From positions 1 to 28,685 of IMG/VR virus record IMGVR_UViG_3300027283_000007: 28,685 bases of DNA; one strand, 5' to 3'. Shown in pieces: positions 8,549-20,476 of this stretch (positions within the stretch are counted from its first letter, which is position 1; every line of letters begins with the position of its first letter). A model generated the notes under the pieces. It ran no database searches. It was not told the origin of the DNA and saw only the letters and a list, made by a program, of their open reading frames with translations. The DNA comes from a virus (Duplodnaviria; Caudoviricetes). The position numbers and the translations under genes are program-made.

Positions 8549-9289
8549 TTACGGCATGTCAGGCCAATAGCGATTGGATTTCATGACATTCTCTAAATAT
8601 GGTATTACCTGAATGTTATTCTCAACGTGAAGTCCGCACACTAATTCTGAATTTATCGGAACGATATGATCAACATGCCACTCTAATCCGGTCAGTTTTG
8701 TCCTTAATCTAGCTAAGTCATAAGCCTCTTCTATAAAAAATTCATTAGCCCATGGCACCGAAGCATTTTGCATCAAGATTCTTCTGGTTCTATACCAAAA
8801 ACTGACCTTATCGGGATTGCCTTGCCTGTACTTTTGACGTATAGCCTTTACTTTTCCCTTGTTTTTAATCTTCCATTCTTTTTTTACAGCATAGTATCTA
8901 TCTTTGTTTAAAGAGTAAGCAATTCTGGCGCAATATCTTCTTCTTTCCTTTCTAATTTCAGTTAGAAACAACTCTTTCCACAACAGAACATGAGACTCAT
9001 GAAGCGATTCAAGAAAAGATTTTTTCTTGCTTCCCAGTCTTAATTTCCGTTGTTGCGATATTTTTTCTTTATTCCAATAATAGTGCCTGTTTGAATCCGC
9101 TCTTAATTTTTCTCTGTTTTCGTCGGCATACTGACGTCGACTATCCTTTCTTCTTGCATGGACTTCTCTCTGATAAGCTGGGTAGCATGTTTTGCATTTG
9201 TTGCCAAACCCGTCTTTTCTGCTCTTGTCTTTGTTGAATTGAGATACGTGCTTTTGTTCTTTGCATATGCTGCAAGTTTTTTGATTCAT
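8549..9289 (-). CDS. Free-standing HNH homing endonuclease
   Basis: N-terminal CxxC...CxxC, basic helical linker, C-terminal WHVDHIVP...CGLHVENNIQVIP...N..KSN; AT-rich relative to its neighbours. Confidence 0.88.
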   Translation of the reverse strand: MNQKTCSICKEQKHVSQFNKDKSRKDGFGNKCKTCYPAYQREVHARRKDSRRQYADENREKLRADSNRHYYWNKEKISQQRKLRLGSKKKSFLESLHESHVLLWKELFLTEIRKERRRYCARIAYSLNKDRYYAVKKEWKIKNKGKVKAIRQKYRQGNPDKVSFWYRTRRILMQNASVPWANEFFIEEAYDLARLRTKLTGLEWHVDHIVPINSELVCGLHVENNIQVIPYLENVMKSNRYWPDMP

Positions 9290-11688: not shown

Positions 11689-12717
11689 TTACAGGCCGAT
11701 CATTTGAGCGATTGCCAAAGGCTGCTTGATGATTGCGCCCCATGTGCCGGATGTCTTTTTCTGTGCGAAACTGGACAGATCAACCTTGATCGGATGCGCT
11801 CTCAACTTCTCATTGAACGCACAATAGCCGGTATCCTGACCGTCGATGCTTTCAACAATCAGTTGCATCAGCTGGCCGGCAGCAGTCGCATATTGCGTGG
11901 CCGTTTCGATGCGGATGTTCGGAAAGTTCTTTTTGATCTGGTCAGTGACATTGACGTTGTATTGGTTTGTCTTGGTCATGTTGACCTCCATTTCTGGAGA
12001 CATGGCGAGGCACATACGCGCATCACGCTCGACCAGGCCTTTAGTCTGAGTAACCAGCTGACCGAACAACTTGACGATATCGCCATAAATAGCGGCGCCG
12101 TCTTTCGTGCTCCATAACGTGCCTGAGCTCGCGCCGGTAGCGTCGGGAGCAATCGCCGCTTGCAAGGCAGGATCATTCAGAATGCCGTAGTTTTTCAGAC
12201 CATCAACGCCGTAGAAGTGCGATGCGTTCATGAACTTATCGAGCACCAGCGTAGACGCTACGTTCAGGTTCTGCGCGTAATTGATCTTCGCCTCGGCGGC
12301 AATGGCCAGTTCACGTTCGCCCCATTGGGTCACGGTCTGGAACAGATAGGATTCACGGCTGACCCAGTTCGCATTTGAGCCTACAGAACCGTTAGCGTCA
12401 AAATCGCCGTAAGAAGCTACCTCGCCCGTTGACTCAACAACCGGGAACATTGCTGTTTGCGTGGTCCAGTCGCCCTTTTTAGTCTCGCCCAGGATCGAGG
12501 CCGCCTTATTAGGCGTGACCAGAATGCGGATGATTTCAGGGTCCAGGTAGTTAGTCAGGAAAGCCGGAACGCCCGCGTTCGATGCGGTGACCAGTGCCGG
12601 CTGGGCATCCATGGCCAGTGAAATATCCATGGCCAGTTCGTGAGGCTCTAGCAGCCCTCTAGCCATCGGAACATGCACACCATGCCGGGCTAATTCATTG
12701 TGATTGATTTGTAGCAT
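11689..12717 (-). CDS. Major capsid protein (DUF2184 family, HK97 fold)
   Basis: 342 aa with GETKKGDW, YGILNDP and QKKTSGTWGAII motifs; followed by a terminator. Confidence 0.88.
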   Translation of the reverse strand: MLQINHNELARHGVHVPMARGLLEPHELAMDISLAMDAQPALVTASNAGVPAFLTNYLDPEIIRILVTPNKAASILGETKKGDWTTQTAMFPVVESTGEVASYGDFDANGSVGSNANWVSRESYLFQTVTQWGERELAIAAEAKINYAQNLNVASTLVLDKFMNASHFYGVDGLKNYGILNDPALQAAIAPDATGASSGTLWSTKDGAAIYGDIVKLFGQLVTQTKGLVERDARMCLAMSPEMEVNMTKTNQYNVNVTDQIKKNFPNIRIETATQYATAAGQLMQLIVESIDGQDTGYCAFNEKLRAHPIKVDLSSFAQKKTSGTWGAIIKQPLAIAQMIGL

Positions 12718-12721
12718 TTAA

Positions 12722-13663
12722 TTAGCCTCGTGTTGAGATTTTGATAAGTTCGTTGGCGGCGCCGTTAGATTCCACATAGAAATCGGTCTCCACGTTGCCT
12801 GTAGCAGCAATGGCCGTGCTCGTTACCACGGTAGCGGAGTCAACGATATAAGTGCCCGAGCCGCCGGTGCCGGTGCCCAGTGCGGTAATGACCGTGCCCG
12901 CATCAACGCCGGTGCCACTGATAACCGCGCCTACGCCAAATGAACCTGTCACCGTGCCGCCGACAGTCAGAACGCCATGAGCGCCGGTGATTGTGGTGCT
13001 AGCCACGTCTTGCGCAATAGAAACTTCATAAGTGCCTGCGCCGCCGGTCGTGCCGCTCAGTTGCTTAACAATGCGCGTGCCTGTGACAACGCCTGTACCA
13101 GACAGCAGAGCGCCGGGAACGATAGTGCCCGTGACAGCAGAGGCCGTCAGAACCGGAACGCCTTCATCGCCAGAGGGCTGAGTTGTACGGGCAATAACGC
13201 CGGTAAACGACAGAGTGGCGTTAGCCGCAACACTCGACGCAGAGCCAGAGCCGCTTGACGTGGGTGAGCCGGTAGCCGCCGTGCTGAGTGCGCCGGTTGC
13301 CAGATTCGCGTAAACCTTCTGGCCGCGAATGCCTTGAGTTGAGGATTTAGCCCAGAAATCGCCCCGGTTATACAACGATACCGGGCGCCCGGCCTGAATC
13401 AGCTCAGAGCTTTCGGCAAGCCATGTGGTGATGGACGCTTGCAGTTCATTGGCCACAAAACCAATCGGTGCGCCGGCGCCATGCTGGACCACTTCCTTAG
13501 TAAACGGGTCGATCCAGGCAAAACGCCCAACAGTGACGCCATCAGTGCCAGCGATCAGGCCACCAGGGCCGGACAGAACAGAGGCCCGCGGGTTGTTGCT
13601 GGCGAAATCGCCGGGCTTACCAGGAGCCGGATTAACATTAATTGCAGATTGAAAACCAGTCAT
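12722..13663 (-). CDS. Head decoration/cement protein with two inserted Gly/Thr-rich beta domains
   Basis: GDFASNNP, VGRFAW and GDFWA core between DUF2213 and the capsid gene; internal 60-aa tandem repeat. Confidence 0.75.
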   Translation of the reverse strand: MTGFQSAINVNPAPGKPGDFASNNPRASVLSGPGGLIAGTDGVTVGRFAWIDPFTKEVVQHGAGAPIGFVANELQASITTWLAESSELIQAGRPVSLYNRGDFWAKSSTQGIRGQKVYANLATGALSTAATGSPTSSGSGSASSVAANATLSFTGVIARTTQPSGDEGVPVLTASAVTGTIVPGALLSGTGVVTGTRIVKQLSGTTGGAGTYEVSIAQDVASTTITGAHGVLTVGGTVTGSFGVGAVISGTGVDAGTVITALGTGTGGSGTYIVDSATVVTSTAIAATGNVETDFYVESNGAANELIKISTRG

Positions 13664-13674
13664 TATTGGCTCCG

Positions 13675-14733
13675 TTAGATAGATTTAAGCTTTGCAGCGG
13701 TAGGGAATTGTGTTGCGAAATCAGAAGCCGCCGCCGCATCATGCGCCATTTTTGGCTTCTCGGCTTTTGCTGTGGCCAGTTTGATTATCGATGGATAGGC
13801 GGACGGGTGAACGCCGGTCACATCGATGTTCAGATGATCAAGCGCCAGCTTATAAACGGCTTCGGCGCTATCCATCGCGGCCACTTCGCCAATGATCGGC
13901 GCCACATCCTTTTCGGCCTGACGGATGGCTTTGAACTTATTCATCGCGGCATCGTGAGCGGCGTTGATAGCTGCATCCATGGCTTTTTTGTCGTCCTTCT
14001 CTTCTTCTTCGTCGTCCTCATCCTCGGCAACGGCTTCCTCTTCTTCGGTCTCTTCCTTTTCGGGCTCAGCGTCGCCAGCCAGCATTTTGGCGAGTTCTTT
14101 CGGATCAATAGCCGCGTCTTGCGCCAGCTTCAGCGCTGCGGCCAAAAGTTCTTCTTTGGTCATTGGTTTGTTCTCGGGTTGTTTAAAAGGGTCTGAATCG
14201 GAAACAACACAGTCGCGGCCAGCTCTTCCAAGCTCCACAATCGCCACATGATTCCCGATGATATTGCGCATCACTCCATCGAATTTAACGCCTTCAAACT
14301 CTCCTGGTGTCATATCGGGCGTGTAACGGTAAGCACAGGACAGTTCACACTGTTCCTTGGTCTCAATGCCGGCAATCGCCGCCGCATCCCAAACCACAAG
14401 CGAGTTGCGAAGGAACGGCTTAACGAACTCGGCATCAGTACCGGTACTACCGACTACGTTTTCCTTTTTCGGGTCGTCAGCGGAAACCGGGACATGCCGA
14501 TCCAGCAAAGGGATGTGATTAAATGAGGCGGCGCCTTTGGCCAGTTCTTCCGGATCACGCAGCAATTGATAAATTCGGTCGGCATCCAGTCCGAGTTCTT
14601 TATGCCCCGGTATCTCGCGGCCATAATAAGGATTAACGGTGGCCTTACTGATGTTCGACATAGCCACATGCAAGCGGCCATCGGCATCGACTGTGCGTGA
14701 CGAGCGATCAAAGGCTAGCAGTAATTCAGGCAT
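13675..14733 (-). CDS. DUF2213 prohead protease/scaffold-like protein
   Basis: NPYYGREIP, ELSCAY and GNHVAIVELGRAG motifs, followed by an acidic/helical scaffold-like C-terminus. Confidence 0.85.
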   Translation of the reverse strand: MPELLLAFDRSSRTVDADGRLHVAMSNISKATVNPYYGREIPGHKELGLDADRIYQLLRDPEELAKGAASFNHIPLLDRHVPVSADDPKKENVVGSTGTDAEFVKPFLRNSLVVWDAAAIAGIETKEQCELSCAYRYTPDMTPGEFEGVKFDGVMRNIIGNHVAIVELGRAGRDCVVSDSDPFKQPENKPMTKEELLAAALKLAQDAAIDPKELAKMLAGDAEPEKEETEEEEAVAEDEDDEEEEKDDKKAMDAAINAAHDAAMNKFKAIRQAEKDVAPIIGEVAAMDSAEAVYKLALDHLNIDVTGVHPSAYPSIIKLATAKAEKPKMAHDAAAASDFATQFPTAAKLKSI

Positions 14734-14790
14734 GGCTAGGCTCCATCAGCAAAAAATCCGTGGATACCCCTATAACACATGCGCTATCGG

Positions 14791-14825
14791 TGCTATATAA
14801 TCGAGTTTCAATCATCAAAGTGGAG
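14791..14825 (+). promoter_or_regulatory. Promoter -10 and RBS of the opposite-strand moron
   Basis: TATAAT at 14796-14801 and GGAG at 14822-14825 before ATG 14832; no clear -35. Confidence 0.55.
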
Positions 14826-14831
14826 TACGAA

Positions 14832-15209
14832 ATGTTATTAGGAATTTTGGCGGTACTATTCGCCGCAGTCTTTTTCAGAGAACTGAAATTACTGCTGGTT
14901 CTCTTGTTGTTGGTACTGGTCTGGAATTTTCCGACCGCTCAGGCCGGGCCGGTTGTCGATAAAGAGTTAGAGCAATGCGCCGGTATTGCGGCCATGGCCA
15001 GTACCGTGGCCAGCGTAAGAAACAATCAATTGCCCGCACAGGCGGCGATGCAGATCGCCACAGGGCAGTTTGGATCAGGGTCTAAATGGAATTTCCCAGA
15101 AGAGGGGATTCAAGGGGTTGTTGATATCATTTATGACTCAGGATATGCGAGTCCGGACCAGGTCAAAGAGTCCGTGTTTAATGAGTGCTACAAGCCGGCT
15201 AATCGTTGA
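14832..15209 (+). CDS. Moron: membrane-anchored or exported protein (125 aa)
   Basis: Start moved from 14697 to ATG 14832 because of the RBS. Two hydrophobic segments, an AQA signal-peptidase-like site, then a helical domain bracketed by two Cys. Confidence 0.75.
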   Translation: MLLGILAVLFAAVFFRELKLLLVLLLLVLVWNFPTAQAGPVVDKELEQCAGIAAMASTVASVRNNQLPAQAAMQIATGQFGSGSKWNFPEEGIQGVVDIIYDSGYASPDQVKESVFNECYKPANR

Positions 15210-15984
15210 ATCCGACCAGAATAGCGGAATCGGTACATCTGCAATTGTTTTCCATTCCTGGATGTGTCCATTTGCCATCCAGGAACATGCCCTTACGAAT
15301 ATCGTAAACCTCGCCATCAGCTTTCAAGTGTGACGGTCTCGGGGTTTTACCCGCGTGTGAATGATGCCAACGCGCGTGGGTCAGGCCCATATCAAGCCGC
15401 CGCGTTCTGTTGAGCGTGGCAGTGGCCTTGTTGCTCTGGTCCTGCGCGATAAGAATCGCCCGTTTACGCGTCAATGCGTAGCGTTTCTGTAACTCATCGG
15501 TCAACGTTGACAGCTTTCGGCCTTGCTGAACCGACCGCATCACCAGCCCCTGTACGTCCGTCAAATGCTGCTGAGCAATCGACTTGATTAAGCCGACCTG
15601 CTCATTGATCACGGCAACATAGGCGTTCTGCATCGATTCGGTCATTGTGAACTTCACGGCAAAGCCCGAATCCTTAAGGATTCGTTGTAGCGATCCGTCA
15701 GAGTAATTCTTCGTCTTTTGCGCGAACCAGAGCGCCAGCTTTTCGGCGCCCTCGTCAAAGTTTTTCAGCCATTGCTTGGCCAGCTTGTCCATGACTTCTT
15801 GAAGCGCGTCTGCTGGTATAGCATCGTCCTGGGCAATACCGGGATAATTGGCCTTGTAGGATGACGTCAGCCAGTACGCGATTGATTTGTGCATTTCACG
15901 CACCAGCTTTTTAAGTCGGCGTTGGTATTCGGCGCTGATGCCGGCATTGGGATAGACGGGCTTAAGCGTTTTTGTGTTTTTCAT
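15199..15984 (-). CDS. Head morphogenesis protein (MuF / SPP1 gp7 family), short form
   Basis: RAILIAQDQ, W.HS....PRPSH...DG and PG..NNCRC motifs; no C-terminal toxin extension. Confidence 0.9.
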   Translation of the reverse strand: MKNTKTLKPVYPNAGISAEYQRRLKKLVREMHKSIAYWLTSSYKANYPGIAQDDAIPADALQEVMDKLAKQWLKNFDEGAEKLALWFAQKTKNYSDGSLQRILKDSGFAVKFTMTESMQNAYVAVINEQVGLIKSIAQQHLTDVQGLVMRSVQQGRKLSTLTDELQKRYALTRKRAILIAQDQSNKATATLNRTRRLDMGLTHARWHHSHAGKTPRPSHLKADGEVYDIRKGMFLDGKWTHPGMENNCRCTDSAILVGFND

Positions 15985-16138
15985 TGAGTAATGAAATGCA
16001 ACCGGCCAGCACGACCTTAAACAAGTCAGGTTTATTGTTAAACCAGTTGTTTAAGGTCTGAGTGCTGACACCGGTTATTTTTGAGACTTCGGCAAGGTTT
16101 TTAAGCCCTGCCGACCTTGCCGCTTCTGATGCGGTCAT
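15962..16138 (-). CDS. Small HTH regulator (Aca-like context), 58 aa
   Basis: MTASEAARSAGLKNLAEVSKITGVSTQTLNNW; ATG 16138 overlaps the stop of the acidic ORF (ATGA). Confidence 0.8.
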   Translation of the reverse strand: MTASEAARSAGLKNLAEVSKITGVSTQTLNNWFNNKPDLFKVVLAGCISLLNEKHKNA

Positions 16139-16293
16139 AGTGTCACGCCAACCTGATTCCATTCATCATCACATAACGCAACAAGGAAACCGCGCGTCTT
16201 ATAATCATCAACAGCTATATCAAATTGATCTTCGTCGTCAATGTCGATTTCTTCAAATATTTCAGAGTCTTTAAAATATGCCTTTGCTTTCAT
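16135..16293 (-). CDS. Small highly acidic protein (52 aa), anti-defence candidate
   Basis: Below the ORF-track cutoff. MKAKAYFKDSEIFEEIDIDDEDQFDIAVDDYKTRGFLVALCDDEWNQVGVTL has 15 D/E and 5 K/R. It fills the gap exactly and is translationally coupled to the HTH gene. Confidence 0.75.
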   Translation of the reverse strand: MKAKAYFKDSEIFEEIDIDDEDQFDIAVDDYKTRGFLVALCDDEWNQVGVTL

Positions 16294-16309: not shown

Positions 16310-18328
16310 TTAGTAAGTCAAGTTATTTATCTTTGCAATTCGATTGTTTAAATATAAAGACAATCCGTAGTGCTTATCATGTTTAGATGCTTCTTCATCA
16401 AACTCTTCAAACATCTTCAACATTGCTTCATTTGTGTTTGTTATGTTGTGCCGCTTTGCCACATCCCTAAGAACTGTTTTCACATAAGGCAGAGGCGAAC
16501 CGTTTTTCAAAAATACAACATGATTTACGGCCTTATTAAATTCTTCTGTGGCTTGCTCTGTAGTTCTCATTTTCTTACCCTCATCGGCTTTGTTTGATTC
16601 GGGTTTATTATTGCTCTCTTTCCTTGTTTCTGTCAAATTATTTGATGCTTTAGGGGCAATATCCTTCTTTTCAACATCCTTTGACTTGCTCTTAACCTTA
16701 GAAAACGTCTTGCCATTCAGCTTTCCGCCAGCGCCGCCAATAACCTTGCCTGAGCCATCGATCAACACTCGCTTGCCGGTGCGCTCGCCATTATCCGGAT
16801 CTTCGCCGCCATTGACCGTAATCCAATGCGCGGCATCCATCGCGGCCTCCGCTTCATCGTCGTCGTCAAAATCCGCTTCCCCGGTCAAGCCGTCATACCC
16901 GCTATCGGGATCATTCGCGATGCGCTGCCGTGATTCGTCGGGGCTGATGACACCGCCATCAATCAACGTAACATCGGTATCCGCATTGATCTTCCTGATA
17001 TTGGCTTTCTGCTCATCGCTCATTTCTTCCAGGCTTTCAAAATCGAAGGTGATATCGTCGTCAATTTCCCCGAACTCGGAAAGCTGAATGATATCGATAA
17101 CCTTTTTCAACGGATCTCTTAACAGCGCCTCTTGAGCTGATGCAATGTCGTCGTAGAAAACTTTTATTTCGCCATCACTGGAGGCATTGAGGCCGCTGGG
17201 CGTAATGCCCAGAAACTTAACCAGCGGAATGCTTGACACAGAGCTCATATGTTCCTGTGCTTGGGCCTGCAACTCATGAATGCCAGATAGCGGCGTATTG
17301 AACTGGAAAAACTCCTCAGTATCCTTGTCCAGCAGCATCAAGCCGCGATTATCCCGCAAGTTGTTGAACAGCTGCGCACGGGCGATAAACTGCGCGTCAT
17401 CCATGCCCGACAACACGCCCGACATGTTGGTCATAATGCCGGAGACTGAAAACGAGTGCAGCAGATCGGACACGGAGTCACGCGTACGGGTCCAGTTATT
17501 CACATACGGTTCGGCCATCTGCGTCATTGAAAGACCGCCGAAGTTGTAGGCCGCTTTCAGCAAGTCTGGCACTTCCCGGCTTACGAATGTCAACAAGCGC
17601 GAACTGTGAACCGTTTTACCAAGTACATACCACGCGGACGGACGGTAATAGTTCTGGGCCAGCGGATCGGTAGAATTGTAATCGCTCGGATACGTCCAGA
17701 CCGGCTCAATCACTTTGAAACCGCGTAAAGCACCCTTTTTGATCTTCGCTTTATCAACCAGCAGAACGGTTTTTAGCTCTTCCGGGTCTTCCGACGCCAC
17801 GCCACCATTCGGCGTTTTAACATCGATGTAAATTTGTGCGCGGCCATAGAGACCGTCAAGCTCTATTGCCTTTTTGAACAGGTCCTTAATTTTGTGCTTT
17901 TTTAGGGCGCCTTCAATGGCCTTGATTCTCTCGTCCTTGTCGCCTCCCGTGGACTGTAACTTAATCCATTTACGCGTCATCTCCTTGGCCGGTACTTCGC
18001 TCATTTTCCGGTATTCCGGCAATGTGCCCAGAACGGCTAAATTCTGGTAGCCCTGAAAATGATTGCCGGCATACGCCTGATTCACGTAATCATAGGGCGT
18101 TGAGTCCATAGCCAGCGCCTGCGAGCGCTCATCCGCTGGAATAACGCCTGCCGGTGGCTCATAACGGGTAATGAGTGCTAATTCCTCATCCTGCTCCGGC
18201 AATGTTCTTGCTAATGCCGATAAGCTGATGCCCTTGCGCCGCACTTCAGCCGGAACTGGAGCGCGTACCGTTACCGCCTCGGCTTTCTTGCTCTTGCCGA
18301 AAAGTTTCTGTTTCAAGCGTTTGATCAT
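16310..18328 (-). CDS. Portal protein (DUF1073 family) with a ~175-aa C-terminal extension
   Basis: Follows terL; VHSSRL and KFLGITPSGLNASSDGE motifs. The core ends in an acidic tail near residue 495, after which an unrelated extension begins. Confidence 0.88.
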   Translation of the reverse strand: MIKRLKQKLFGKSKKAEAVTVRAPVPAEVRRKGISLSALARTLPEQDEELALITRYEPPAGVIPADERSQALAMDSTPYDYVNQAYAGNHFQGYQNLAVLGTLPEYRKMSEVPAKEMTRKWIKLQSTGGDKDERIKAIEGALKKHKIKDLFKKAIELDGLYGRAQIYIDVKTPNGGVASEDPEELKTVLLVDKAKIKKGALRGFKVIEPVWTYPSDYNSTDPLAQNYYRPSAWYVLGKTVHSSRLLTFVSREVPDLLKAAYNFGGLSMTQMAEPYVNNWTRTRDSVSDLLHSFSVSGIMTNMSGVLSGMDDAQFIARAQLFNNLRDNRGLMLLDKDTEEFFQFNTPLSGIHELQAQAQEHMSSVSSIPLVKFLGITPSGLNASSDGEIKVFYDDIASAQEALLRDPLKKVIDIIQLSEFGEIDDDITFDFESLEEMSDEQKANIRKINADTDVTLIDGGVISPDESRQRIANDPDSGYDGLTGEADFDDDDEAEAAMDAAHWITVNGGEDPDNGERTGKRVLIDGSGKVIGGAGGKLNGKTFSKVKSKSKDVEKKDIAPKASNNLTETRKESNNKPESNKADEGKKMRTTEQATEEFNKAVNHVVFLKNGSPLPYVKTVLRDVAKRHNITNTNEAMLKMFEEFDEEASKHDKHYGLSLYLNNRIAKINNLTY
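16607..16645 (-). promoter_or_regulatory. Sigma70-type promoter embedded in the portal CDS, with a palindromic operator over the -35
   Basis: TTGACA (16636-16631), 18-nt spacer, AATAAT (16612-16607). Perfect inverted repeat TCAAAT-n-ATTTGA at 16633-16645. GAGGG RBS before the in-frame ATG at 16570. Confidence 0.7.
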
Positions 18329-19752
18329 CGGGCGGTTCGTTTTAGGGTTTCGGCGGAAATCTGTAGAGGTTTAGCCAGCATGGAATCGACGTAAGCCATG
18401 ATGAAACTGTCACCCAAATTGGGTGAATCAATCTCGCGTTTAGCCAGATCCTTCTTGCTCTCGACCTTTACCCGGCCAGCCAGGTCATAATCCCGTTTAG
18501 GCGTGCAGAGCTCGTCTATTAACTGGTCAAGATGCGGCATGGATGAGTCGATAAAGATCATTTCATCATCGCGGAACTGTTGCCCGTTCTTGACTGCGTT
18601 ATAAGTGTTGCGCAATCGGTCAGCCACCAGCCACCACGCTTGAGCCTTGATGTTCGAGAAGAAGTCCTTGTTCTTAATCTCAGTGCCGGGATATTTAGCA
18701 TCGGGCTTATAGACGGCGCCACCGGCAAAAAACTTGTTATGCATGACGCGCTCATGCTGCAAAACACCAATATTCAGCTCATTGAACTTGGCGCCTGATG
18801 TAGCCCCGACGCCGATAGCATCATAGATAATGGATGCTTTACGTTCTCTGGCTGAATGCCATACCCGCGTACAGGACTTAAGCAACTCGTCCTCTTTGGC
18901 TTTCCACAGATCAGCCCAGACAGCAAGGGAGCCATGCGCGTATATCTGAGCGCAAGAATCCTCGCCGGCGTCGGCCACATCGAACCCGATGCGCCTAGAG
19001 CCTGTGACCTCGATGCCGAGCGTTTTATGCGCATCAATCGCGGACATCAAGTGAGAACGCCGAATGATTGCTTCGTCGTCGTCGTCTTTCGGGACGCCCA
19101 GATAAATATGGTTGTACTCATCCTCATCTTCGGCTTTAGCATCTGCAATAACCTTTCGCATTGTAGATGAAAGATAAGGGTTTTCATCGTAATTTATCTT
19201 TCTTGTTATCGCCCCTTCAGGGGGATTTGTTACAAAGCGACGATATACCCAGTCTGTTGAGAATCGCGGATTAAATACGATGAATATCTTTGAGTTCTCG
19301 GCTCGGATTGTTGGCATAATGATTCGCCATTGTTCCTCGCTTAAATCCTCAGCTTCTTCTATCCATAATATTTCTACACCAGCAATACCTTTGATCTCAT
19401 TAAGGTTTCGCTGAATGCCTAAAAAGGTAAAATTCGATCCGGTTCTTTTGTGTACTATTGAGTTTTCAGTTATCTTGAACTCGTCGCGCAATCCTTTTGC
19501 GTCAATGCACTCTTCTATTACTGTCTTGACTGAATCTGATATGCGGTTTTGGAACTGCCTGACGCATAAAAAGTTTATCTTATGCGTGCAGGCAAGGAAT
19601 ACACAGAAACCGGCTGTATGATACGTCTTGCTTGATGCTCTGCCACCGTACAAGACGTAATAACGATGATTTGATTCGTAAAAACCTTTGAGATTAGGAT
19701 TTAATAAAGGGATGCTTTTAACCGGCTTGTAAATATTCCCATTTATATCCAT
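18325..19752 (-). CDS. terL: Terminase large subunit (PBSX family)
   Basis: Walker A YGGRASSKT, Walker B ILWIEEAE, FNP coupling motif, and nuclease motifs GFDVA and SPNLGDS. Confidence 0.95.
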   Translation of the reverse strand: MDINGNIYKPVKSIPLLNPNLKGFYESNHRYYVLYGGRASSKTYHTAGFCVFLACTHKINFLCVRQFQNRISDSVKTVIEECIDAKGLRDEFKITENSIVHKRTGSNFTFLGIQRNLNEIKGIAGVEILWIEEAEDLSEEQWRIIMPTIRAENSKIFIVFNPRFSTDWVYRRFVTNPPEGAITRKINYDENPYLSSTMRKVIADAKAEDEDEYNHIYLGVPKDDDDEAIIRRSHLMSAIDAHKTLGIEVTGSRRIGFDVADAGEDSCAQIYAHGSLAVWADLWKAKEDELLKSCTRVWHSARERKASIIYDAIGVGATSGAKFNELNIGVLQHERVMHNKFFAGGAVYKPDAKYPGTEIKNKDFFSNIKAQAWWLVADRLRNTYNAVKNGQQFRDDEMIFIDSSMPHLDQLIDELCTPKRDYDLAGRVKVESKKDLAKREIDSPNLGDSFIMAYVDSMLAKPLQISAETLKRTAR

Positions 19753-20476
19753 AAGACTTGTTTCTCTTTCCCGTCAGGCAAAACCAAATGCCTGTTCTTG
19801 TCGCCTTACTAGACCCGTTATCCCTTAACCATACTGCGGCATTTTCAATGCTATCAAATACAATACCGTTATCAATGCACTTAACTTCTCTTTTGTTTGG
19901 CTGGCTGTCAGACATTTTTTGTCTTGCTTCGGCGCTTCTCTTCTTGCCTCTGTGCCAATCAGCTACTTTCTTGATTGTTTCAGGGCTTGGCTTTCTTCCT
20001 TTGCGAACAATAGACATTTTTAACCTTGTCTCTGCGCTGGCCTTTGTTCCTCTATGTGATGCAGCCGTTCTTTCAACGGCATCCCTAGGCTGTTTCCTGC
20101 CTCTATTTGCAGCGGCTCTTTTCTGAACTAATTCCAAGGGCTGCTTCTTTCCCTTGTGCGCTCTTCTAATAGCCTCTCTTGTTTCAGGCGAATGTCTGTG
20201 CCCGGTTATGCCATCGCCGCCATTTGTGCGATTGCACAAAACAACCCCTTCCTCTTTAAGAAATTCTATTGTTTCGACTTCAATATCAAATGCTTCTTGC
20301 TCTGTCAGTCCTGAAAACAGTATTTCAATATTAAGGCCATGCTTTTTGTATGTACGATTCCAAAGCTCACTTCTTCCGTGAGTATTAGAGGCTCTTCTAC
20401 CTCTACCTTTGCCGACATAAAAAGGGTAATTGTTGCTAGCCTTCCGATGAAGGTAGACATAAAAATCATTTTTCAT
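19718..20476 (-). CDS. GIY-YIG-like homing endonuclease with NUMOD3 repeats
   Basis: FYVYLH...FYVGKG...R, N.T.GGDG, repeated HSPETREAI/SAETRLKMS/SAEARQKMS units, and a C-terminal NUMOD1-like HTH; overlaps the terL start by 35 nt. Confidence 0.88.
   Translation of the reverse strand: MKNDFYVYLHRKASNNYPFYVGKGRGRRASNTHGRSELWNRTYKKHGLNIEILFSGLTEQEAFDIEVETIEFLKEEGVVLCNRTNGGDGITGHRHSPETREAIRRAHKGKKQPLELVQKRAAANRGRKQPRDAVERTAASHRGTKASAETRLKMSIVRKGRKPSPETIKKVADWHRGKKRSAEARQKMSDSQPNKREVKCIDNGIVFDSIENAAVWLRDNGSSKATRTGIWFCLTGKRNKSYGYKWEYLQAG

Follow-up and report, generated by a model that had tools for sequence, protein, structure and literature searches.

An optional cargo slot at the end of a myovirus portal protein, with a predicted head-protease site and a predicted promoter in its linker

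Why does the portal gene of a phage run on past the acidic end of the portal body into a low-GC (guanine plus cytosine) stretch of 86 residues? The question is raised by the virus record IMGVR_UViG_3300027283_000007, analysed here as a window of 28,685 nucleotides (nt), meaning the whole 28.7-kb record, which is 58% complete. Its myovirus head-tail block lies on the minus strand in the order terminase, portal (PF06381), MuF, DUF2213 protease/scaffold, cement, capsid, sheath and baseplate. A preliminary description made from the letters had proposed that the portal carries a modular C-terminal cargo behind a putative cleavage site. We found that the portal end is an optional slot, empty or filled with unrelated small genes in close relatives. 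The reading that we favour, with modest confidence, is that the slot is cut at an A-M-D motif by the DUF2213 protease, that about 12 copies of the released piece are left in the head and ejected with the DNA, and that a promoter in the linker supplies free cargo as well. Rules for loading proteins into heads and ejecting them with the DNA are known for few phages (T4, P1).

The portal frame and its optional end

The portal open reading frame (ORF; 18328-16310, minus strand) encodes 672 residues and is stop-free. PF06381 (Phage_portal_3), which we take to be the former DUF1073, spans residues 95-452 (E 1.9e-93; 313 bits against a cut-off of 33.8). The profile, the place between terminase and MuF/protease/capsid, and homology to solved portals, of which those of the Pbunavirus phages Pa193 and E217 and of Pam3 are the closest in the PDB, identify the protein as a PF06381-type portal. 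Behind the core follow the acidic tail DFDDDDEAE (486-494), AAMD (495-498), HWITVNGG (501-508), GKRVLIDG (518-525), GGKLNG (534-539) and Met587 (position 16570). All portal elements named in the preliminary description were found where it had placed them, in a frame that is real. GC is 0.51 in the portal core, 0.56 in the module, 0.37 in the linker and 0.35 in the last 86 residues.

A stop codon lost in assembly, or a chimera, could create such a fusion, as the preliminary description had cautioned. The evidence on authenticity is at contig level throughout, and the holders of the full length may be the window's own source: the identical 672-residue protein (P0161) is on 10 contigs from three sources, and a 49-kb contig (X4) that covers the region with 0 differences is possibly of the same source as the window; no RNA dataset was among the holders listed. 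In a run from another study (X17), two contigs that differ at 0 and 12 positions cover most of the cargo gene. The in-frame junction is the same in divergent alleles found in other studies, and the changes across it are biased towards silent ones. From the A-M-D through the module to the start of the linker, the two related alleles differ by 11 silent against 4 changed codons and by 17 against 2, counts drawn from 16 of 18 and 20 of 23 differences, with assignment to contigs by depth. The identical contigs and the shared junction contradict an assembly error, which we consider hardly credible. Two database copies of the window portal (P0002, P0003) each lack a different 11-residue block and are probably assembly artefacts.

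How the portal ends was surveyed in the best 80 of 115 related portal loci, 76 of which reach the C-terminal region. There, 59 proteins end at most 100 residues after the core, 16 have longer tails (one of them identical to the window) and 1 is cut off. Within the window portal's own 90% cluster of 7 members, four proteins (P0160, P0163, P0164 and P0165) stop at the acidic tail, at 498-503 residues, and are 90-96% identical to the window in the portal body. MuF directly follows the portal in empty alleles. A contig in three soil runs of one study joins 16852 to 15968 and gives a hand-read portal end of DELPGA-stop, which the DELPNA ends of P0160, P0163 and P0164 resemble; with fewer than 30 letters on the short side of the joint, the empty allele is better evidenced by the proteins.

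The filled alleles differ in what they hold. P0162 retains the A-M-D, the module and the linker up to EGKKM and then continues into an unrelated 180-residue cargo, and P0008 is a third filling. All three cargos are joined at the equivalent of Met587, and the best cargo-cargo BLAST match has an E of 0.095. The last ~20 linker residues of P0008 differ, yet its linker has the same length and is stop-free; the spacing to the cargo Met is 33 residues in both P0008 and P0162, and E-G-x-K-M is retained before the cargo in all three. The variable cargo that the preliminary description had expected a comparison of homologues to reveal is borne out by these empty alleles and unrelated fillings. The portal has what is expected of a portal-fused effector, an in-frame C-terminal domain that varies among relatives, and the empty and three filled alleles in near-identical portals offer a natural series.

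The conserved W-x-T…GGxGGK module

Between the A-M-D and the linker lies a conserved module of ~40 residues, present once in the window record. A DNA scan for GGAGGKLNG found 44 viral loci, in 36 of which the peptide is read in frame, and a 24-sequence profile matched 1,333 clusters at E at most 0.001 and 293 at 1e-10 among 1.84 billion representatives. Of the 149 new proteins among the best 150, 137 were scanned for families, with 11 under 150 residues and one of 4,150 residues omitted. The carriers include portals of the PF06381, PF06074 and PF04860 families (Mu-type and HK97-type among them), DUF2213 proteins, ADP-ribosyltransferases (ART), ddrB-ParB, InPase, LPD1/3/5, NUDIX, PBECR3 and SNF2 helicases; most short carriers match no family. 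Of 153 proteins, 85 have their first module no more than 60 residues from the N-terminus, and several polyproteins repeat the motif and module ahead of every unit. One locus (L088) has three separate module copies, each behind A-M-D, within 6 kb and beside MuF.

The module has no match in Pfam, the PDB or the ESM Atlas, and in PHROGs it matches only the N-termini of phrog_62 and phrog_25904. Its beta strands are predicted with low confidence in a single-sequence model. A tblastn search with the window's extension found no cultured phage; other module variants did match cultured phages, among them Ralstonia phage PQ43W and Aeromonas phage DH1, in their portals, and Morganella phage Mecenats66, in a head-cluster helicase. 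Among the literature matches listed, nothing dealt with the module, with a rule of the A-x-D kind or with promoters inside portal linkers. If the module is a retention or ejection tag, it would flag candidate injected proteins across the 1,333 clusters. A different short module (E-x-x-H-P-R…G-x-F like) stands after A-x-D in 11 of the 16 long-tailed portals (L015, L039/L040, L049-L052, L055, L058, L059, L069), which suggests that this slot serves two or more families of tags.

The A-M-D motif as a predicted head-protease site

The A-M-D ahead of the module recurs near the portal N-terminus, and AMD also marks the capsid and the protease/scaffold of the window phage (Table 1); as for T4-type internal proteins, the propeptides of capsid, scaffold and portal in one phage share a motif. 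AMD occurs 6 times in the 1,940 residues of five head proteins and 2 times in the 6,485 residues of the 37 others (post hoc p 0.003). As in the window phage, it stands in the capsid and portal N-termini of Pbunavirus: it is at 62-64 in the Pa193 capsid, and residues 1-65 of the E217 capsid are given as missing in the structure (PMC10329688). The first 93 residues of the Pa193 portal likewise went undetected by liquid chromatography-mass spectrometry (PMC11456595).

Position and context point the same way. A[MQLNG]D is present in 14 of 16 long-tailed and 1 of 59 short-tailed portals, over search lengths of 110 and ~30 residues respectively and with several near-duplicates among the long-tailed loci. 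An Asp stands four residues ahead of the module Trp in 92 of 173 matches against a 6% background, under a profile that took in columns upstream of the module and is biased by them towards x-x-D. A covariation set seeded by GGAGGKL comprised 151 loci in 109 distinct contexts, of which 56 fell in a K-A/S class, 41 in an Asp class and 12 in neither, with priority given to the K class; priority to Asp moved some contexts to the Asp class. Contexts with a DUF2213 protease had x-x-D in 5/5 and those with any PF06381-type head gene had Asp in 18/18, while a Mecenats66-type protease was accompanied by hydrophobic-x-K-A/S in 18/18; the 26 contexts with any Mecenats-type head gene split 21, 2 and 3. Mecenats66 head proteins contain M-x-K-A/S 10 times in 1,988 residues and A[MQ]D never, and M-x-K-A/S is a candidate cleavage rule of the second protease type. 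In the Mecenats66 locus (L126) the 10 occurrences in five head proteins compare with one in ten others.

The A-M-D and the module are, on the codon counts given above, under purifying selection. Motif sharing, the Asp position, covariation and selection together make the AAMD that the preliminary description had called a putative cleavage site a likely site of cleavage by the head protease, and the locus suggests a rule by which DUF2213 proteases may cut, namely after A-x-D.

The linker promoter and the internal starts

Overlooked in the preliminary description, the Lys-rich linker doubles as predicted promoter DNA translated in the portal frame. The residues S-N-N-L-T encode both a palindrome and the TTGACA of a predicted sigma-70-like promoter. 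This is the sole site in the window with at least 11 of 12 matches, where 0.375 are expected per shuffled window, and none arose in 5,000 shuffles of the linker. The P0008-type allele reads TTGACA-17-TAAAGT by hand, with a different -10 box, and a scan of IMG/VR for the 15-base palindrome/-35 sequence returned about 340 stretches. The embedded promoter is local to the lineage of the window.

Three nested products, from 18328, 16840 and 16570, had been suggested. The start at 16570 gained support from the promoter and the GAGG-like site ahead of it; the start at 16840 (Met497) did not hold as a conserved feature. If Met497 were used, module and cargo could be made separately and packaged by the module with no need for cleavage. 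A GGAGG does lie 5 nt ahead of this codon, and such a site precedes 2 of the 76 internal Met codons counted across nine large ORFs; the N-terminal position of most first modules would agree with such a product. Both related alleles, however, lose the GGAGG to GGAAG by a silent GAG-to-GAA change at E494 while retaining the A-M-D, and only 6 of 19 portal-fused homologues have a Met in the 12 residues before the module Trp, against 13 without. We regard separate synthesis from Met497 as very improbable; the Met587 start is better supported, and we predict that the cargo is produced in two forms, fused and free.

The cargo and the genes that follow it

The cargo of the window has no family in Pfam or PHROGs and no match in the ESM Atlas or by word-index search among proteins of 47-151 residues; in IMG/VR it returned two identical copies and two matches of 15-17 residues only. 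Neither it nor the cargos of P0162, P0008 and P0004 match a Pfam, PHROG or NCBIfam family. Its models are single-sequence ones; Foldseek gave no match at E at most 0.001 among viral structures, and the best VIA match (Z 5.4, root-mean-square deviation 2.9, 57 residues aligned) is no better than common helical arrangements can give. Neither by sequence nor clearly by fold did it match any Acr. A recognised conflict domain occurs as cargo only in more distant carriers of the module.

Downstream, the cargo gene is followed by a 52-residue ORF and a helix-turn-helix (HTH) gene. The latter has homologues in 33 phage records; in five of these that were opened and three IMG/VR loci, mostly small variable ORFs lie just upstream of it, and a promoter of at least 10/12 is found 350-420 nt upstream of the HTH gene in 3 of 8 other loci examined. 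No Aca was among its PDB sequence matches at E at most 5; Aca profiles were not run.

These free-standing cassettes bring in a rival account of the fusion: a cassette of promoter, 86-residue ORF, 52-residue ORF and HTH gene landed behind an older module, only the free early protein works, and cleavage at the A-M-D merely trims the portal to normal. The linker being promoter DNA, the small variable genes ahead of the same HTH family elsewhere and the four close alleles without the extension all fit it, as do the rarity of promoters behind the module in general and the ~6% chance that a promoter stretch is captured in frame and free of stops. Against it stand the purifying selection on the A-M-D and module in alleles that carry the promoter, and a frame kept by three cargos, including P0008 with its differing linker end. 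We judge the read-through account unlikely, though it is the strongest of the rivals.

Proposed mechanism

In the reading that we favour, cleavage at the A-M-D with a packaged and ejected cargo, the fusion would assemble into the portal dodecamer with its C-terminus inside the head, like the C-terminal barrel of E217. The DUF2213 protease would cut after D75 and D498, leaving about 12 copies of a 174-residue piece of module plus cargo (499-672) in the head. Because each polyprotein unit begins with the motif and the module, the module would stay on the released piece, either holding it in the head or piloting it out, and the piece would leave with the DNA at ejection. Transcription from 16636 would then supply the free 86-residue cargo until the HTH protein represses it at the palindrome. 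The cell would thus receive a ready-made dose on entry and then an early burst that limits itself. Cleavage, packaging and injection of the cargo are what we infer; that it counters a host defence is a guess, prompted by the operon layout, the low GC, the turnover of cargos and the partners of the module elsewhere. Should dual expression be true, a counter-defence protein would be present at entry, before any phage transcription.

Several points weigh against this reading. The AMD motif was picked after it had been seen, and the broader A-x-D is without significant enrichment in head proteins (21/1,940 against 42/6,485, p 0.07). The tail comparison and the Asp position carry the unequal lengths, near-duplicates and profile bias described above, and the covariation amounts in essence to a single contrast, drawn between two lineages of phages. 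AMD as the edge of the 93 undetected residues of the Pa193 portal (1-93; PMC11456595) proved wrong, AMD lying at 70-72 in the SN portal, and in the Pbunavirus fusion to InPase no A[MQFLHNT]D separates the portal from its cargo. The linker promoter was rejected as a general trait of module cargos (1 of 80 modules, 1.13 expected). The chance of in-frame promoter capture counts here too, and nothing ties the cargo to any defence system.

The Pbunavirus fusion without the motif also suits another possibility, that the packaged extension is never detached, or is detached and kept in the head, with a role in DNA retention or head assembly. The tail behind the module is basic, and the C-terminal barrel of the E217 portal is described as touching packaged DNA (PMC10329688). 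Unrelated cargos and empty alleles fit a structural role poorly, and in other proteins the module stands ahead of enzymes whose predicted place of action is the host (PMC5512222). A head-internal role seems distinctly improbable to us.

Going beyond cleavage and ejection of this one cargo, the portal tail might be a dual-expression gene trap, in which any small gene landing at the Met587 slot becomes both a protein delivered by the virion and the leading gene of an early operon that the HTH protein autorepresses and whose promoter is spelled out in linker codons, with the module as a portable, protease-matched tag for head cargo, carried by more than a thousand clusters of phage proteins, and its partners as a catalogue of injected counter-defence proteins. 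We offer this wider proposal tentatively, as a whole, and consider it on balance doubtful.

Features and neighbouring genes

Table 1 Features of the portal locus and related head genes in the window
Feature	Position	Strand	Basis
Portal body, residues 1-494, with acidic tail 486-494 at its end	16847..18328	-	PF06381; PDB portals; relatives end here
N-terminal A-M-D (73-75), predicted head-protease site	18104..18112	-	motif; AMD at 70-72 in Pbunavirus SN portal
A-M-D (496-498), predicted cut site of the head protease, freeing residues 499-672	16835..16843	-	retained, with silent changes only, in two related alleles
Conserved module H-W-I-T…R-V-L-I…GGAGGKLNG (501-539) with basic tail to K550	16679..16828	-	alignment; 1,333 clusters
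Low-GC Lys/Asn/Ser-rich linker (551-586), predicted promoter and leader DNA of the cargo gene	16571..16678	-
Palindrome TCAAAT-N-ATTTGA over the -35 box, candidate operator	16633..16645	.	sole such site in window
Sigma-70-like promoter TTGACA-18-AATAAT, 11/12	16607..16636	-	predicted
GAGG ribosome-binding-like site of the cargo start, within E-G codons	16579..16582	-	sequence
Swappable 86-residue cargo ORF (587-672), predicted four-helix orphan	16310..16570	-	AF2 pLDDT 80
52-residue acidic ORF, second gene of the predicted operon	16135..16293	-	weak PHROG match, E 0.007
58-residue HTH gene, candidate autorepressor (Aca-like position)	15962..16138	-	HTH_3 below cut-off; phrog_409
MuF head protein	15199..15984	-	PF04233
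DUF2213 head-maturation protease/scaffold, predicted cutter, with five A-[MQFL]-D sites	13675..14733	-	PF09979; PHROG head maturation protease
Major capsid protein, AMD at 29 and 35	11689..12717	-	PHROG annotation; motif search

Elsewhere in the window, a second cassette of promoter, small ORFs and regulator lies at 24955-24319 (minus strand; TTGACA-17-AATACT, 10/12), with a 54-residue ORF (24883), a 61-residue basic Gly-rich ORF (24718) that by eye has the appearance of a small DNA-binding protein, and a further small ORF. The 465-bp gap between MuF and protease (14733-15199) contains a plus-strand promoter-like site at 14772 (10/12) and terminator-like hairpins near 14850. The cement/decoration protein (12722-13663, minus strand) has 313 residues, ~2 times its Pfam domain, and its C-terminal part matches phrog_21413 and the tail-fibre phrog_38233. 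Two homing-endonuclease-like genes, also on the minus strand, lie between the terminase subunits (19718-20476) and between neck and sheath genes (8549-9289).

Comparison with known systems

The preliminary description had pointed to fusions of this portal family to effectors such as Acb1-like ones; Acb1 is a 2H enzyme. This is borne out in part: portal-2H, portal-PBECR and portal-InPase proteins, and MuF fusions to such effectors, are published, with packaging and injection predicted for them (Iyer et al. 2017, PMC5512222). The window module sits on the same repertoire as the polyvalent proteins of that paper (ddrB-ParB, InPase, LPD1/3/5, ART, SNF2). There, processing is assigned to an MPTase domain, and the cargo here matches no family. 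The passages on these proteins describe no head-protease motif, shared module, empty and filled alleles or internal promoter; the supplement may hold the module under another name.

T4 internal proteins IPI-III and Alt carry a capsid-targeting sequence that is cut by the prohead protease gp21, and IPI counters a restriction enzyme (PMC9026906). The window resembles them, as they are described there, in a variable cargo that would be loaded into the prohead, processed by a protease and ejected. The T4 signal is a propeptide of 10-19 residues that cleavage removes, whereas the window module is placed behind the predicted cut and would remain with the cargo; in the window the carrier is the portal itself. 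In P1, an N-terminal signal of 30 residues packages DarB, a large helicase-methylase effector (PMC9024508, PMC12810830). The module likewise heads SNF2 helicases in the Mecenats66 head cluster and matches the N-terminus of phrog_62; portal fusion and protease-matched motifs are absent from the passages on DarB (PMC9024508).

Pbunavirus gp19 (E217, Pa193) belongs to the same portal family and head module and is a dodecamer with its C-terminus inside the head (PMC10329688, PMC11456595). In the Pbunavirus portal the unresolved C-terminal part of 237 residues is an InPase domain (PF18823), and likewise in Wifcevirus (L127:7440-9737, L128:2662-5037); the passages of the two cryo-EM papers on these portals make no mention of it (PMC10329688, PMC11456595). 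Beyond lacking the motif ahead of InPase, gp19 differs from the window portal in having no visible module in SN or WFH.

In acr-aca operons a consensus promoter with an inverted repeat in its core is followed by small genes and then an HTH gene (PMC9410906). The window has this layout: a predicted promoter with an inverted repeat and, downstream of the small genes, an HTH gene on the same strand with short gaps. It departs from the operons described there in that the promoter lies inside the portal frame and the first gene is also a structural-protein fusion, and no Acr or Aca homology was found. Portal-effector fusions were already known; what appears to be new at this locus, against the literature matches listed and the passages compared, is the predicted promoter in the linker, the module, the match between motif and protease, and the series of empty and filled alleles.

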